Assembly (NCBI GenBank): GCA_044228875.1
Contig: JBGAUA010000003.1
Coordinates: forward strand, 8,401 to 72,400
From: Anaerolineae bacterium
Lineage (GTDB): Bacteria; Chloroflexota; Anaerolineae; Epilineales; Epilineaceae
DNA length: 64,000 nucleotides
Reading direction: 5' to 3'
The translations under genes were made by a program, and so were the position numbers. Shown one piece after another: positions 30,523-36,423 of the stretch. Under the pieces are notes generated by a model. That model ran no database searches. It was not told the DNA's origin and saw only the letters and a list, made by a program, of their open reading frames with translations. Position 1 is the first letter of the stretch. Each line of letters opens with the position of its first letter.

Positions 30523-33084
30523 ATGGCCAAGCCCGCCAAGACCTCCATCGCCGCCTGCTTCGCCCCCGGCGGCGCCCTGGCGCAGGCCCTGCCCGGTTAC
30601 ACGCCGCGCGCCAGCCAGGCGCAGATGGCCGAGGCGGTATGGCAGGCCATCCAGAGCCAGTCGCCCGCCCTGATCGAGGCGCCCACCGGCACCGGCAAGA
30701 GCCTGGCCTATCTCATCCCCGCGCTTGCGTCCGGCAAGACGGTGGTGGTGGCCACGGCCAACAAGTCCCTGCAGCATCAGCTCTTCCTCAAGGATGTGCC
30801 TTTGGCGGCGCGGATCCTGGGCATGGAGCCCGACGCCGTGCTGGTCAAGGGACGACAGAACTACGTCTGCCAGTGGAAGTGGGAGCGCGAATGGGTTGAA
30901 CGGCAGCTGCTGGCCCAGATCGAGGGCCCGGGCGGGCAGGTGAACGCCCTGCGCGACTGGTTGGCCGGCACACCCACGGGCGACGTCGACGAACTGCCCT
31001 TCCTGCTGGCGCCCGACCTGCAGCCTCGCGTCGTCAGCCTGCACGACGACTGCATCCAGCAGGCCTGCCGCCATTTCGAGGAGGGCTGCTTCGTCAACCA
31101 GATGCGGGACGCCGCGGCGGGGGCGCGGGTGCTGATCACCAACCACCACCTGCTGCTCACCGCCCTGCGCCTGGGCGAGGCGGGGCACCGCCTGCTGCCG
31201 CCGGGCCAGGTCTACATCATCGACGAGGCCCACCACCTGGTGGACACGGCCACGGCGGTCTTCAGCGTCGAGGTCACCGACCACGCCGTGGAAGGGCTGT
31301 TGGCCCGCACGGTCTACGCCGAGCATCTGGGCGCGGACACGGTGGACGAGCTGCGCTTCATGGCCCGCGCGGCCTTCGACGACCTGCGTGCCCAGGCCCG
31401 CACCGCCGGGGGCGAGGGCGGCGCCTGGCGCATCGAGGAAGAGCTGCCGCGCCTGCGCCAACTAGCCCAGGCGCTCAAGGCGCAATCCCAGCGCCTCCAG
31501 GATCACAACCCCTACGCCCGCGAGGCCGCCCGGGCGGCGGGCGGCCAGTCGCCGGAGGCGGCGGCACAGGCCGATGGGGTGGAAGAGGCCTGGAGAGCGA
31601 TGAAGCGCCTGCAGCCGACGCGGACGGCGACGCGCGGCAAGGCGGCGACGCCCCTGGACGAGGCCGCCGCGCGTCAGCTCTACGACCTCGCCGTCAGCAG
31701 CCTGAACGGCCTGGCAGACGATTTCCTCACGCTGTCCAGCGCCAGGCGCGACAATCAGACGGTCCGCTACGCCGAACCGGTCAGCGGACGGCGCCAGGTA
31801 CGCCTGGTGCTGCACGCCTCGCCCATCACCCCGGCCACGGAACTCTCCGAGCATCTCTTCGGCGCCACCGGGCGGGCGGTCATCTGCACCTCGGCCACCC
31901 TGGCCGCCTCCGACGGGTTCCGCTCGGTGACGACGCGCCTGGGCATCGAGCGACCACCGCTGGAGCTGGTGACCGAGACGGTCTTCGACTACCCCGCGCA
32001 GGCGCTGCTCTACCAGCCGGCTTTGCCGGAGTTCCGTTGGGATCAGCGCGAGGTCTACTACGACGCCGTGGCCGCGGAGATCGAGCGACTGCTCTCCGCC
32101 AGCCGCGGTCGGGCGCTCTGCCTCTTCACCAGCTGGGCCGGCCTGGAGCAGACGGCCGGGCGCCTGCGCGAGCGCGGCTGCTTCTGGCCCCTGCGCGCCC
32201 AGGGCGACGCCCCCCGGGAGGCCCTCCTCGGCTGGTTCCGCGGCACCGCCCACAGCGTGCTCCTGGCCACCCGCGCCTTCTGGGAGGGCGTGGACGTGCA
32301 GGGCGAGGACCTGAGCCTGGTGGTGTTGGACAAGCTGCCCTTCCCCTCGCCGAGCGATCCGCTGCACGGGGCGCGGATGAAAGCGGTTGAAGCGGCGGGC
32401 GGCAGCAGCTTCGACGACTACCTCCTGCCGCAGATGACCCTGACCCTCAAGCAGGGCTTCGGCCGCCTCATCCGCACCGACCGCGACCGGGGCGTCGTGG
32501 CCATCCTGGACGAGCGCCTCAGCCGCAAGGGCTACGGCCAGGCGGTTCGCCGCGCCCTGCCGCCGGCGCCCCTCACCCGCGACTTCGGCGCGGTGCCCCG
32601 CTTCTTCGACGCGGCGCTGGGGGGCGCGGTGGACTTTGCCTTGGAGGTTCGGGGCCGGGAGGTCGCGGAGGGCGACGCCCCAGGATGGCGCTGGACCCTG
32701 CGCCGGATGGTCGACGGGCGGGCGGACAGCGCCGCGGGAGACACCGACCAGGTGCTGGATTCGGTCTCGGCCGAGTTCTACGCCGCCGCGCTGGGCCTGA
32801 AAGACCTGGCCGCACGGGTGCGCCGCGCCGGCAAGGAGCCCGCGGCCTTCAGCGTGGAGCTGCGCTGCAGCCAACAGGCGGCCGGCTGGTTCGAGCGCGC
32901 CGCCGACCTGCCGGCAGACGCCTTCGGCGGCCGGGGCTTCACGCCCGCGGACTTCCTCGTCGAGCGCGCGACCTGGCGCGCGGTGACCGTTCTGGGGGCT
33001 GCCGTCGAGGCCGCCGACCCGGTGGACGCCGGGCCCCAGCCCCGGACATCGACCAAAGAGACTCCCCCGTGGACGCGATCCTGA
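30523..33084 (+). CDS. dinG: ATP-dependent DNA helicase, DinG/XPD (DEAD_2, Fe-S) family, with ~160-aa C-terminal extension
   Basis: Walker A EAPTGTGKSLAYL; Cys cluster NYVCQ...DDCIQQACRHFEEGCF; DEAH-like IIDEAHHL; C-terminal helicase motifs FWEGVDVQGEDLSLVVLDKLPF...QGFGRLIRTDRDRGVVAILD. Confidence 0.85.
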   Translation: MAKPAKTSIAACFAPGGALAQALPGYTPRASQAQMAEAVWQAIQSQSPALIEAPTGTGKSLAYLIPALASGKTVVVATANKSLQHQLFLKDVPLAARILGMEPDAVLVKGRQNYVCQWKWEREWVERQLLAQIEGPGGQVNALRDWLAGTPTGDVDELPFLLAPDLQPRVVSLHDDCIQQACRHFEEGCFVNQMRDAAAGARVLITNHHLLLTALRLGEAGHRLLPPGQVYIIDEAHHLVDTATAVFSVEVTDHAVEGLLARTVYAEHLGADTVDELRFMARAAFDDLRAQARTAGGEGGAWRIEEELPRLRQLAQALKAQSQRLQDHNPYAREAARAAGGQSPEAAAQADGVEEAWRAMKRLQPTRTATRGKAATPLDEAAARQLYDLAVSSLNGLADDFLTLSSARRDNQTVRYAEPVSGRRQVRLVLHASPITPATELSEHLFGATGRAVICTSATLAASDGFRSVTTRLGIERPPLELVTETVFDYPAQALLYQPALPEFRWDQREVYYDAVAAEIERLLSASRGRALCLFTSWAGLEQTAGRLRERGCFWPLRAQGDAPREALLGWFRGTAHSVLLATRAFWEGVDVQGEDLSLVVLDKLPFPSPSDPLHGARMKAVEAAGGSSFDDYLLPQMTLTLKQGFGRLIRTDRDRGVVAILDERLSRKGYGQAVRRALPPAPLTRDFGAVPRFFDAALGGAVDFALEVRGREVAEGDAPGWRWTLRRMVDGRADSAAGDTDQVLDSVSAEFYAAALGLKDLAARVRRAGKEPAAFSVELRCSQQAAGWFERAADLPADAFGGRGFTPADFLVERATWRAVTVLGAAVEAADPVDAGPQPRTSTKETPPWTRS

Positions 33085-33422
33085 TCCCCGACTCGCCGAT
33101 TCCCATCCTCGAGGTCCGATCCCCCGTCCGGTCGGTGGACGACGCCCTGGATCTGATCGCGGCCTGCTCCGAGCTGGGGACCGATCGCGTCCTGCTACCC
33201 GGCTCCATCCTGCCGGAGGCCTTCTTCGACCTGCACACGCGCTTCGCCGGGGAGTTGGTCCAGAAGCTGCTCAACTACCGGCTGCGCGTCGCCGGCCTGA
33301 TTCCCCCCGACCCGGCCCACGGCGATCGCTTCCGCGAGTTCCTCCTCGAAGCCGGGCGGGGGCCGCAGTTCCGCGTCTTCGGCGCGCGCGACGACGCGAT
33401 CCGCTGGCTCGGGGAGGGCTGA
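33069..33422 (+). CDS. DUF4180 domain protein
   Basis: VDDALDLIAACSELGTDRVLLPGSILPEAFFDLHTRFAGELVQKLLNYRLRVAGLI matches the conserved DUF4180 core (..FFDL.TR.AGE.LQK..NY..). GTG 33069 overlaps the helicase 3' end by 16 nt. Confidence 0.75.
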   Translation: MDAILIPDSPIPILEVRSPVRSVDDALDLIAACSELGTDRVLLPGSILPEAFFDLHTRFAGELVQKLLNYRLRVAGLIPPDPAHGDRFREFLLEAGRGPQFRVFGARDDAIRWLGEG

Positions 33423-33527
33423 GTGGTTGCGTGACGGTATCTGGACGCCGAACCCGGCCGGCCGCCGGGCCATCGCAGCGGACGGCATCGAATGACTGGC
33501 CGACGTCTACGGCGGCCAACGCCAAGG

Positions 33528-33588
33528 ATGATGCCTTCATCGACTCGCCATGATGCCTTCATAAGGTCGTTTTGAAGGCATCATGGCG
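33528..33588. repeat. ATGATGCCTTCAT repeat trio forming a perfect 16-bp hairpin
   Basis: Direct copies at 33528-33540 and 33550-33562, with an inverted copy at 33573-33585. Stem CGCCATGATGCCTTCA (33546-33561) / TGAAGGCATCATGGCG (33573-33588), 11-nt loop. Confidence 0.85.
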
Positions 33589-33596
33589 TCGCGCTT

Positions 33597-33644
33597 ACGG
33601 CATCACGTGCATGACGTGATGCCGTGAGCGCGGCGCGCTCACGG
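33597..33644. repeat. two abutting/overlapping perfect palindromes
   Basis: ACGGCATCACGT-gcatg-ACGTGATGCCGT (33597-33625) and CCGTGAGCGC-ggc-GCGCTCACGG (33622-33644) share 4 nt. ACGGCAT recurs at 33641. Confidence 0.85.
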
Positions 33645-33778
33645 CATGGTGGCTCACGCGCCGCTGTTGCGCCCGAATCCCCTCGCCACGGCCCGGCGCG
33701 CGGGCCACGGCTCCGCCTGAGTCCAGGCGTCTCCGCGCCAGAGATCCATGCTTGAAGGCAGGCGGAGCGCAGTCAATT

Positions 33779-33811
33779 ATGGATCGGTGTTATTGTGTAA
33801 CACCGATCCAT
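33779..33811. repeat. perfect 14-bp inverted repeat with AT-rich centre
   Basis: ATGGATCGGTGTTA-ttgtg-TAACACCGATCCAT. Confidence 0.9.
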
Positions 33812-33864
33812 GTTACCACGTAACACCGATCCCCAATTGACCCAATTACCGATCCCTAGTTACC
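33797..33864. repeat. iteron-like direct repeats (GTAACACCGATCC / TTACCGATCC) with 23-bp periodicity
   Basis: Core CCGATCC at 33803, 33826 and 33849 (23-bp spacing twice), with an inverted copy GGATCGG at 33781. Interspersed (G/A)TTACC at 33812, 33845 and 33859. Confidence 0.8.
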
Positions 33865-34116
33865 GCGAATCTCAGGCGCTGGGGGATGGCGAGGGCCGAA
33901 GCAAGCCGGGGAGACCGCGGCGGCGATGGCTTCCCAAAAGGAAAGACCGAGGGTCCGGCTGCCTGGACTCATGGCGCGCACCCCGCCGTTCCGCGGGCTT
34001 CGCGAGCCCCTCCGCCGTCCCTTTATGAACCTACAGGAGATTGGCCGCAGGGCAGCCACCCTGCGCTTCGGGCACGAAGGGGACCGGAATCGCGCCGACC
34101 TGTGGTACGGCCCTGC

Positions 34117-34740
34117 TCAGGCTTGAGGGCCTGCTTCCGCACCCGCCTTGCCCGCGGCGGCGGCACTGCCCGCCACCTGCTCCCGGATGCCCAGCACCTG
34201 CGCCAGCATCGGGAAGGCCGCGGCCCACATGAAGCCGTCCTTGATGGCCGCGAAGACGAACTGCGGCGTCAGCGTCACCTGCTTCACCGCCACCGCCTGC
34301 GCCGCGGCGTAGGACACGATGCCCAGGGCCAGGGAGATGCCCAGGATCTGCCTGCGGATATGCTTCGGCAGGACGCCGGCCATCGCCGCCAGCCAGAAGC
34401 TGAGCAGCACGCCCAACACCTCCGCGCCCAGGCCGCCCAGATGAGCGCCCCAGGTGCTCGTCAGGGAATGCTCCGCCTGGGGCACCAGCAGCACCTGCCC
34501 CGGCTTGATCTCCAACTGGGCCGGATCCGCCATGGCGTTGGCCTCGGCCAACTGGATCGGCGCCACCTCGAAGGCGCTGGCGATCGTCGCCGCGGTGTCG
34601 CCGGCCTGCACGGTGTAGCGCGTCACCGTCTCCACCGCGTCGGCCGGCACATGGGGCATGAAGTCCCGCGTCCACCAGGCCAGGGAAACGATCAACATCA
34701 GGCAGAGCCCCGCCGCAAGGTATAGCGCCGCCTTTCTCAT
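34117..34740 (-). CDS. LysM domain-containing polytopic membrane protein
   Basis: N-terminal TM MRKAALYLAAGLCLMLIVSLAWW. LysM YTVQAGDTAATIASAFEVAPIQLAEANAMADPAQLEIKPGQVLLVP. Then 3-4 predicted TM helices. ATG 34740 overlaps the upstream stop (ATGA). Confidence 0.8.
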   Translation of the reverse strand: MRKAALYLAAGLCLMLIVSLAWWTRDFMPHVPADAVETVTRYTVQAGDTAATIASAFEVAPIQLAEANAMADPAQLEIKPGQVLLVPQAEHSLTSTWGAHLGGLGAEVLGVLLSFWLAAMAGVLPKHIRRQILGISLALGIVSYAAAQAVAVKQVTLTPQFVFAAIKDGFMWAAAFPMLAQVLGIREQVAGSAAAAGKAGAEAGPQA

Positions 34741-34925
34741 CCCCGGCCTCCGCCCTGCAGGGCCGAGCCCACCATCCCCAAGGTCAGCCAGGCTGCCACC
34801 GCCAGCAGGGTCAGTCCGGCCACCGCGTTTACCGCGGCCAGTCCCGCGCCGGCCACCCAAAGCACGGCCAGTAGCAGAAAAGCACCCACCACCTGCCGCG
34901 GGGCCCAGGCCAATCGCTCGTTCAT
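34737..34925 (-). CDS. small (62 aa) two-TM membrane protein, translationally coupled to the LysM protein
   Basis: MNERLAWAPRQVVGAFLLLAVLWVAGAGLAAVNAVAGLTLLAVAAWLTLGMVG. AAGGAG lies 8 nt upstream of ATG 34925. There is a 4-nt ATGA overlap with the next gene. Confidence 0.5.
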   Translation of the reverse strand: MNERLAWAPRQVVGAFLLLAVLWVAGAGLAAVNAVAGLTLLAVAAWLTLGMVGSALQGGGRG

Positions 34926-34989
34926 CCTTCGCACTCCTTAACATTGTGCTCTTGTGCAACATGCCGATCGGCTGGCATCCGACCAGGCT

Positions 34990-36423
34990 TCAGCGACCCA
35001 CCAGACGCAGAACCTTGGCTGCGGTCCGGAGCAGGATCCAGCCGTCCAAGAGCAGTGAACGGTGCTTGATATAGTACAGATCGTACTGCAGTTTGAGAAG
35101 CGCGTCGTCCGTGGACGCGGCGTAGTCCTGGTGGACGGCCGCCCAGCCCGTCAGCCCCGGCGCCACCGCGTGGCGGGCGCGGTAGAAGGGAATGACCTCC
35201 GCCAGCCGGGCTACGAACTCCGGCCGCTCCGGCCGCGGCCCGATCAGGCTCATCTCCCCGCGCAGGATGTTGAAGGCCTGCGGCAACTCGTCCAGGCGCG
35301 AGCGGCGCAGCCAGCGCCCCAGCCGGGTGACCCGCGGATCCGCGGCCGCCGCCCACCGCGGCCCCGCAGCCTCAGCGCCCGGCTGCATCGTCCGCAGCTT
35401 GTAGAGGGTGAAGGGCCGCCCTCCGCGACCGAGCCGCGTCTGACGGAAGAGAATCGGCCCCGGGCTGTCCAACCAGATCAGGGGGGCCAGAAGCGGCAGG
35501 AGCAGCGCAAGGAAGGCCAGCCCGCCGAGGCCGGCGACGATGTCGCCGGCCCGCCGTCCCAAGCGGTACAAGCCTCTGGACTCCGGAAGACTGAGCGGCA
35601 GAACCACCGCCCATTGCTCGCCGATATGCTCCACCGGCACGCGACCGGTCAGCTGCTCGTAGAGCAGGGGCATGGGGGTGAGCGCAACCCCTTGCTCCTG
35701 GGCATCCAGCACGGCACGGAAGAGGCCGGCCTCCATGCCGTGGGTAATGGCCAGCACCACCTCTGTGACACCCAGATCACGAATGCCGGTCAGGAGGGAC
35801 TCGCGGCCGCCCAGGACCGGGAGATCCGCCACCTGGCGCCCGGCCAGTTCCGGGTCGTCGTCGATGAAGCCGACCACCTCGTAGAGCGGCGCCGCCTCGG
35901 CGCGGACAGCCGCCAGGATCGTCCGTCCGGCCTCGCCGGCGCCGACGATGATCAGCCGCGTGCGGAAGGCGCGGCGCTCGACCACCGCCAGGAAGGCCAG
36001 CCGCCAGAAGGGCAGGGCGAGTGCCGAACCCAGGGCGAAGAAGACCGCCACGTGCCGGACCAGGGTCCAGGGCGGGGGGATGAAGTAGGCAAGGGCCCAG
36101 AGGAGCAGCAGCTGGCCACCGACCGTCAACGGACCCACGAAGGCCAGCAGGCGGCGACGGGGGCGTCCCAGCTCGTAGAGGCCGTTGGCCCAGGCCAGGG
36201 CCAGCCAGAGCGGCAGAAGCAGAGCCAACCAGCGCAGGTACTCGCCCGCGAAGGGCCGTTCCGCCCAGTTCCACCCGGAGCGCAGACCGCCCATGCGCAG
36301 GGCAAGCGCGAGCAGGGCCGCCAGCAGAAGGAAGTCGCCGCCGGCAAGGATGGCCTGACGGCTGCGCCGGTCCAGGGGGAGAAAGGATGGCGCGTTCGCC
36401 GCCGCCGCGGGCGCGGCGCTCAA
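34990..36423 (-). CDS. polyprenyl-phosphate sugar phosphotransferase (WbaP/EpsB-type), copy 2
   Basis: SPGPILFRQTRLGRGGRPFTLYKLRTM...DELPQAFNILRGEMSLIGPRPERPEF, with a RLIIVGAGEAGRTIL linker. Start placed at TTG 36423 (TTGA overlap with the upstream stop). The upstream ATGs at 36495 and 36534 lie inside the preceding GT2 gene and translate to A/G/R/P-rich junk. Confidence 0.9.
   Translation of the reverse strand: MSAAPAAAANAPSFLPLDRRSRQAILAGGDFLLLAALLALALRMGGLRSGWNWAERPFAGEYLRWLALLLPLWLALAWANGLYELGRPRRRLLAFVGPLTVGGQLLLLWALAYFIPPPWTLVRHVAVFFALGSALALPFWRLAFLAVVERRAFRTRLIIVGAGEAGRTILAAVRAEAAPLYEVVGFIDDDPELAGRQVADLPVLGGRESLLTGIRDLGVTEVVLAITHGMEAGLFRAVLDAQEQGVALTPMPLLYEQLTGRVPVEHIGEQWAVVLPLSLPESRGLYRLGRRAGDIVAGLGGLAFLALLLPLLAPLIWLDSPGPILFRQTRLGRGGRPFTLYKLRTMQPGAEAAGPRWAAAADPRVTRLGRWLRRSRLDELPQAFNILRGEMSLIGPRPERPEFVARLAEVIPFYRARHAVAPGLTGWAAVHQDYAASTDDALLKLQYDLYYIKHRSLLLDGWILLRTAAKVLRLVGR

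Follow-up and report, generated by a model that had tools for sequence, protein, structure and literature searches.

The stretch of DNA analysed here, referred to as the window, is a 64-kb segment of an Anaerolineae genome (G000:C249:8401-72400, where G000 is a fragmented 3.9-Mb assembly of 315 contigs). We describe an AT-rich array of 23-bp repeats in this window, termed a B array, which lies where a DUF4180 gene and a LysM gene converge with their 3' ends. It contains a perfect 14-bp inverted repeat with a loop of 5 nt (33779-33792 and 33798-33811), whereas only about 0.02 perfect 14-bp short-loop inverted repeats would be expected per 64 kb from an estimate based on base composition. The motif TAACACCGATCC occurs three times (33781-92 on the minus strand, 33798-809 and 33821-32) with no further copy in the window, the repeat period is exactly 23 bp, and the GC content over 33750-33849 is 0.49, compared with 0.70 for the genome. 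The original prediction, which had drawn attention to this patch, had noted the inverted repeat at 33779-33811, the recurrence of its right arm, the 23-bp spacing, the AT-richness and the fact that both flanking genes end at the spacer (at 33422 on the plus strand and 34117 on the minus strand), and all of these observations held. It had also listed a TTACCGATCC variant at 33846-33855; this sequence is present, but it belongs to a palindromic cap-cap unit rather than being a separate variant. When the sequence is stacked in rows of 23 nt, the array register at 33784-33875 consists of four abutting units preceded by a cap, as follows.

33774-33783: left cap half-unit CAATTATGGA (CAATTA cap), the inverted counterpart of the right caps TCCCTAATTG seen in other arrays when 15 arrays are stacked
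33784-33806: unit 1, TCGGTGTTATTGTGTAACACCGA, whose core has a single mismatch (TGTTAT); the left cap and this unit make up the perfect 14-bp inverted repeat
33807-33829: unit 2, TCCATGTTACCACGTAACACCGA, a perfect match to the consensus
33830-33852: cap-cap unit TCCCCAATTGACCCAATTACCGA, palindromic, made of two cap half-sites and also present in the homologous metagenome copy L065
33853-33875: degenerate fourth unit TCCCTAGTTACCGCGAATCTCAG, which runs into a CTCAGGCG box at 33871-33878
33081-33422, plus strand: DUF4180 gene (PF13788, E 7.9e-23), the left neighbour, with its 3' end 350 bp before the array
34117-34962, minus strand: LysM membrane protein gene (PF01476, E 7e-10), the right neighbour and last gene of a minus-strand operon

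The operator or promoter of a small RNA had been among the candidates put forward for this patch. It gained no support: no sigma-70-like promoter was found around the array, and a covariance-model scan of 32500-35200 against Rfam (E<=5) returned only noise, with E-values of 0.7-5 that are far under the gathering scores. Two small open reading frames (ORFs) in the spacer (33810-34025 and 33926-34123) had no Pfam match.

The array is one member of a small family of dispersed repeats. G000 has five B arrays, namely the window copy (C249), those on contigs C260, C178 and C65, and a degenerate copy at the C41 contig end. A second genome of the same genus, Candidatus Epilinea brevis JADJUE01 (G001), also has five, three of which are orthologous to the arrays on C260, C65 and C178, and ten Epilinea-like sludge metagenome contigs (GC 62-71%) carry further copies. 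The distribution of the family is narrow. Even when up to 2 mismatches were allowed, none of 59 further genomes from the same family, order and class contained the two-unit pattern, the exact two-unit pattern had no match in about 185,000 other species representatives, and no match to the B-array pattern was found among viral contigs. Isolated single B sites occur at background frequency only. The original prediction had proposed a copy-number check that could reclassify the patch, and this is indeed its outcome: the patch is one copy of a dispersed family with five loci per genome, and it sits inside a composite repeat of about 450 bp that is described below. In a stack of 15 arrays, the register is exactly 23 bp throughout, with 2-5 units each and no spacers. 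The unit consensus is TC-S-R-TGTTAC-N-W-N-GTAACA-Y-S-GA, and the array ends are closed by CAATTA/TAATTG caps that are inverted relative to each other. Most arrays in the stack are direct repeats without long perfect stems, and the number of units varies between orthologous arrays. The window copy is the shortest B array, with only two good units, one of them bearing the core mismatch. We also observed the same palindrome inside a 27-bp satellite, GTTACACAGTAACAAAATTATCTGTTT, which fills the contigs L075 and L076 (JGI24699/24697 contigs, 29% GC) and is of unrelated origin.

We then derived a sequence logo from 49 units at 16 loci. The hexamers TGTTAC and GTAACA are 97-100% conserved and the junction bases GA|TC (positions ±10 and ±11) 84-94%, while the remaining positions reach 43-53%; the variable positions are the three central bases, ±8 and ±9, with A/T preferred at the dyad. 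Given that paralogous flanks are only about 70-80% identical, the cores are held by selection or by conversion among the units. If the arrays were conserved as hairpins, the variable mirror positions should remain complementary. Complementary pairs were instead found in 9 of 46 cases (16.6 expected), 21 of 46 (19.5) and 12 of 46 (21.6), so that there was no excess at any variable position, and complementarity at ±1 and ±9 was below that of shuffled controls. This indicates that the two half-site sequences, and not hairpin pairing, are conserved. In addition, an orthologous solo array near a tRNA gene is identical at 87 of 88 positions (98.9%) between G000 and G001, whereas its flanks are 86% and 61% identical. 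Purifying selection thus acts on at least a subset of the solo arrays, and there is selection on the half-sites. This pattern of conservation favours a double-stranded site for a symmetric dimeric protein over a hairpin in RNA or single-stranded DNA. The GATC at the unit junctions was also considered as a Dam/SeqA-type site. This was rejected, as neither genome has a D12-class methyltransferase above the cut-off and the observed/expected ratio of GATC is 0.96.

A candidate for such a protein is encoded next to one of the B arrays. The gene, which we call HU-B, lies on the minus strand of G000 contig C65 (7222..6707; 172 aa), and a B array is found 145-250 bp upstream of its start codon in both G000 and G001; the G001 ortholog of HU-B is 95% identical. 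HU-B matches the Pfam family PF18291 (HU-HIG) with 26.4 bits (cut-off 26.2), and the paralog on C77 with 43.3 bits. A profile of seven paralogs matches the HU structure 1b8z (E 1.5e-5), and the AlphaFold model of HU-B (predicted local distance difference test score, pLDDT, 79) aligns with HU chains in Foldseek at target-normalised TM-scores of 0.83-0.89. In the model, the C-terminal part consists of two short helices and a W-x-DAEFPDDP motif, followed by a disordered basic tail that, in HU-B-type proteins, may contribute to DNA contact; no C-terminal winged helix-turn-helix (wHTH), immunoglobulin (Ig) or glycine-rich module was found by Pfam. Both G000 and G001 have 11 matches to this HU-HIG-like family, several other genera of the bacterial family have 5-12, and one incomplete genome has 1. 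Among the other families of the order, one genome showed two weak matches and the rest none. The paralogs are 27-67% identical to one another, which represents a lineage-specific expansion with rapid divergence, and a 2.26-kb duplication in G001 carries a gene together with its array.

The association between arrays and HU-like genes is not limited to HU-B. A private upstream array was found for six of the seven G000 paralogs whose upstream region is assembled, and for nine of the 11 paralogs in G001. The arrays differ between the paralogs:

HU-B (C65): B type
Paralog on C77 and its G001 ortholog: A module, a repeat family also found in the window at 33528-33650
Paralog on C97: GTTCCAATTGGAAC, 3 copies
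Paralog on C68: GCAAGTACGCTGCGTACTTGC, 2 copies
Paralog on C271: GCGAAT/ATTCGC
Paralog on C23: three 22-bp direct repeats
Paralog at G001 C6:171005: AACAGCTAGCTGTT, 5 copies

Besides B, the array types of the paralogs thus include the A type, a CCAATTGG type and the GCGAAT type, and other genera and metagenomic relatives have ATTCCTTATAAGGA, GTTCTTGAAGAAAC, CTCCCTATAGGGAG and GCGAAT arrays, mostly with a period of 22-24 bp. When G000 was scanned without bias for AT-containing palindromes that recur, 32 loci were returned; six of them are no more than 700 bp away from a total of five paralogs, compared with an expectation of about 0.17. The array motif of the genome G002 occurs only upstream of its own gene, and that of G014 is found in front of two paralogs as well as at a few solo sites. 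Arrays and paralogs are therefore statistically linked, and repeatedly so. The claim of the original prediction that the patch is a multi-site protein-binding array is supported by this link to a DNA-binding protein gene, as well as by the position-specific conservation, the lack of hairpin covariation and the purifying selection on the orthologous solo array.

Two further features of the paralog loci were observed. Palindromes of the GCAAGTACGCTGCGTACTTGC type occur as pairs exactly 67 bp apart at seven loci (C68:56-143, C77:31322-31409, C40, C110, C167, C188 and C310) and as a single site on C22; one pair lies upstream of the paralog on C68 and one directly downstream of that on C77. About 100 bp upstream of the start codon, many paralogs from several genera (L085, L086, L089, L098, L099, L101, L108, L109 and L111) have ACGGCGG / GCGGCGGT boxes, which may represent a leader or promoter element shared across the HU-like family. 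Similar to these boxes is a stretch, CTACGGCGGCCAA (33507-33519), within the leader of the composite repeat in the window.

The simplest reading of these associations would be that each paralog recognises its own array, in which case the B arrays, including the window copy, would be the sites of HU-B. We lean towards this interpretation and propose that the window patch is probably a solo docking array for HU-B, that is, a copy of the array upstream of the HU-B gene. One HU-B homodimer would bind each 23-bp unit as double-stranded DNA, and neighbouring units, being about 2.2 helical turns apart, would permit dimers to load side by side in a cooperative manner. The array upstream of the HU-B gene itself would mediate autoregulation. 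A loaded solo array in a convergent spacer would serve as a docking platform, acting as a roadblock or insulator between transcription units, as a nucleoid anchor or as a titration sink. The solo arrays take no common position relative to their neighbours (two are in divergent settings, two in convergent ones and the rest in tandem), which is unlike the operators of a shared regulon.

Several observations weigh against this interpretation. What ties HU-B to the array is adjacency; the binder, the stoichiometry and the role of the solo copy are inferred. Four of the five B arrays, including that in the window, have no HU-like gene nearby. The window copy has no ortholog in G001 and could be decaying, considering this absence, its mere two good units and its core mismatch. 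Gene conversion among the units could mimic part of the conservation. As for the protein, its Pfam match is barely over the cut-off, and according to the alignment and the model, its beta-ribbon arm is about 15 residues shorter than that of HU and lacks the intercalating tip proline, so that the classical DNA grip of HU and IHF may not apply. Finally, HU-HIG proteins have been argued to be unlikely sequence-specific factors (Burroughs et al. 2017, PMC5499826). HU-B resembles the clade analysed in that study in its HU core fold, in its number of diverging paralogs (about 5-12) and in the lack of conserved operon partners, but it occurs in Chloroflexota instead of Bacteroidetes and has no wHTH, Ig or glycine-rich C-terminal module.

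We also considered a wider hypothesis, which we hold only tentatively: that HU-HIG-like proteins are sequence-specific readers, with each paralog co-evolving with a private phased palindrome array of 22-24 bp in front of its gene, and that in Epilinea such arrays were also copied, singly or as part of composite cassettes, to further intergenic positions, where selection maintains them as chromosomal docking or insulating sites. HU-HIG proteins form large, fast-evolving expansions, and whereas the only published analysis argued against sequence-specific binding, the private arrays argue for the opposite. If this hypothesis is true, then it describes a protein-site system absent from the literature and extends it to Chloroflexota with a new C-terminal architecture. 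It would also provide an origin and a binder for minisatellites of the BrickBuilt type (see below); phased 23-nt minisatellites such as these have no known binder. The locus offers a cheap test, which requires one small protein and a 100-bp DNA fragment, and the genome holds about ten presumably orthogonal protein-array pairs. Binding would show how the architectural HU fold evolves many private specificities and would reveal the role of solo arrays located between operons. Without it, the array would be a low-copy intergenic repeat of local interest.

Among the other explanations, we first considered that the array is a non-autonomous mobile or duplicative element only, in which any protein binding would be incidental. 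This concerns the larger repeat in which the array is embedded, whose parts in the window are as follows.

33490-33950 (limits approximate): composite repeat of about 450 bp, consisting of a leader with a ACGGCGGC box, the A module, CGCCTGAG boxes, the B array and a tail
33528-33650: family A module, made of ATGATGCCTTCAT units with a 22-bp period plus TTACGGCATCA hairpins; this second dispersed family occurs on 20 contigs of the genome
33713-33723: CCGCCTGAGTC box; such CGCCTGA/TCAGGCG boxes flank every B array

Homologous composites with about 70% identity were found by BLAST and MAFFT in four other gene contexts (G000 C41, G001 C9, and the metagenome contigs L065 and L070), and the leader plus A module (about 200 bp) and the tail (about 90 bp) can be aligned across different loci, as can the caps and the CGCCTGAG boxes. 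The CGCCTGA/TCAGGCG boxes also form runs with a 22-bp period in C41, in L070 and upstream of the HU-like gene, while the CGCCTGAG octamer boxes show no genome-wide enrichment and are local to the cassettes. The A module recurs at G000 C77:31913-32035, at C97:5755-5908 and on 18 other contigs; it precedes the HU-like paralog on C77, as well as the ortholog of that gene in G001, by about 75 bp, and the C97-type paralogs by about 600 bp. In its second hairpin, both sides have changed between copies (ACGGCATCA/TGATGCCGT versus CCGGCTTCA/TGAAGCCGG). The only terminator-like hairpin that we noticed lies outside the array, in the composite tail downstream of the LysM operon (33944-33959, minus strand); it is weak and followed by CTTTCCTTTT, and a AAGGAAAGACC stretch at this hairpin is conserved in the composite copy L065. 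The DUF4180 gene was rejected as a partner of the array, since only one copy of it exists and none of the other composite loci carries it.

The orthologous DinG-LysM spacer of G001 (C3:604167-604690, L059; window 33012-34135) has neither the DUF4180 gene nor the A/B composite and holds instead three TCCCAATTGGAAC palindromes, a motif found upstream of C97-type HU-like paralogs, so that the same spacer carries solo arrays of different families in the two species. The presence/absence difference amounts to wholesale replacement of the spacer, with no clean empty site. Together with the occurrence of composites in other gene contexts, this indicates that array content changes from one species to another and that copying can involve whole cassettes.

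The closest published analogue is BrickBuilt, a 23-nt minisatellite and miniature inverted-repeat transposable element of Porphyromonas gingivalis (Klein et al. 2015, PMC4596501). BrickBuilt consists of spacerless tandem 23-nt repeats with dyad symmetry between a leader and a tail with small inverted ends. It is always intergenic and restricted to a species or genus, its unit number varies between strains, and promoter activity has been shown; one copy, BrickBuilt_14, has a membrane-protein gene on one side and on the other a gene (PGN_0872) that encodes a DNA-binding protein of the HU family (PF00216). The B arrays share the spacerless 23-nt repeats with their dyad symmetry, the leader and tail, the intergenic position, the varying unit number and the restriction to a genus, a likeness of architecture. 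They differ in having 5 loci with 2-5 units instead of 19 loci with up to 23 units, in showing neither the IS5-like terminal repeats nor the target-site duplications of BrickBuilt, in having no sigma-70-like site at the window array, and in belonging to a GC-rich Chloroflexota host.

In the sense of a BrickBuilt-like cassette of leader, 23-bp tandem repeats and tail, a purely mobile origin draws on this architecture, on the composite homologs in five different gene contexts, on the different array type in the orthologous spacer of G001, on the variable unit number among orthologous arrays and on the metagenome copy L067, in which a different flank begins exactly at the array edge. Nevertheless, we regard it as unlikely to be the whole explanation. 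No IS-like terminal inverted repeat, target-site duplication or clean empty site was found, although insertion sequences (IS) with matching ends were not searched for; the copies are old (about 70% identity) with no recent burst; and three of the five loci are stable between the species. Mobility explains the spread of the arrays but not their conservation, which in the half-sites and in the orthologous solo array is far higher than in the flanks. Mobility is also compatible with protein binding and concerns mainly the origin of the copies.

We next considered whether the arrays are operators or iterons for another sequence-specific dimer, such as a TetR-like, ribbon-helix-helix (RHH)-like or phage-repressor-like protein, with the HU-like gene as merely one target. 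A 15-bp odd-centred palindrome with a 23-bp period resembles the operator sets of lambdoid phages and of TetR-type repressors. In the lambdoid operators OR1-3 and OL1-3, several 15-17-bp palindromes have centres 23-24 bp apart, and one set precedes the binder's own gene for autoregulation. B arrays are similar in being phased palindromes with one set before the gene of the candidate binder, but this binder is HU-like instead of a helix-turn-helix protein, the units abut, solo arrays lie far from the gene, and there is no phage context. In addition, GTTAC-N3-GTAAC arrays were found directly upstream of small RHH-like genes on two unrelated plasmid-like contigs, L068 (10 sites) and L079 (2+1). 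On L068 (Ga0137829_10563488), the sites occupy positions 1-215 with a period of 22-24 bp, and on L079 (Ga0118677_10181763) they lie at 318-353 and 639-651. The genes that follow encode 94-95 aa with a common N-terminal NA(E/Q)RQAxY motif, and L068 also has a convergent 157-aa ORF downstream without a Pfam match, which in our impression resembles plasmid replication proteins. These RHH-like proteins were rejected as the binder because they have no homolog in G000. Furthermore, no regulator gene adjoins the window array, and about ten private arrays would each need a dedicated factor, whereas self-recognition by the HU-like proteins needs none. We therefore consider another dimer improbable.

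A hairpin in RNA or single-stranded DNA was evaluated as well, either as a stabiliser or terminator of the kind seen in repetitive extragenic palindromes (REP) and bacterial interspersed mosaic elements (BIME), or as the substrate of a Y1 transposase (REP-associated tyrosine transposase, RAYT, or IS200-type). REP and BIME are mosaics of intergenic palindromic repeats, often at convergent gene ends, and some of them (RIB/RIP class) bind IHF, a member of the HU family. The B arrays are likewise intergenic and palindromic and stand in multi-module mosaics; the window copy has a perfect 14-bp stem and lies between convergent gene ends, and in both species no more than 1.3 kb separates the home array from the sole Y1 transposase gene of the genome. 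We judge this explanation very doubtful even so. The variable positions show no pairing covariation, the majority of the arrays are direct repeats in which long perfect stems are lacking, the family has 5 loci per genome only, compared with tens to hundreds of copies in REPIN-RAYT systems, and keeps a strict 23-bp phasing unlike REP/BIME and the REPIN-RAYT system, and the window hairpin has no Rfam match and no T-tract after it. The Y1 transposase has flanking hairpins of another kind, specific to it and nearly absent elsewhere. This gene (IS200/IS605-type, PF01797) is single-copy and located just downstream of HU-B (G000 C65:5947-6660, including its inverted hairpins). A RAYT/IS200 link was accordingly discarded: the hairpins flanking the Y1_Tnp gene (C65 6142-6580) are unrelated to the array and occur only there, apart from one partial copy. 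In G001, the Y1 gene (C7 ~94550-95950; L048 2250-3650) is interrupted by about 700 bp of inserted sequence with another ORF.

The remaining proposal, that the array is a set of replication iterons, a parS-like partition site or a recombinase site of an integrated element, can claim that iterons and plasmid centromeres typically have tandem repeats of about 22-23 bp, but it is scarcely credible for five dispersed chromosomal loci when rep, par and integrase genes are absent beside the window copy and viral contigs gave no match. The recombinase or transposase, iteron and partition candidates of the original prediction are likewise not supported, since no recombinase, rep or par gene is adjacent, the sole Y1 transposase has different hairpins and canonical parS sites lie elsewhere. 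The identity with parS was rejected also because the motif spacing of the array differs. The canonical parS-like sites, GGTTTCACGTGAAACA and GGTTTCACGTGAAACC, are located 464 bp apart at G000 C222:5812 and 6276, and they are probably the chromosomal partition sites.

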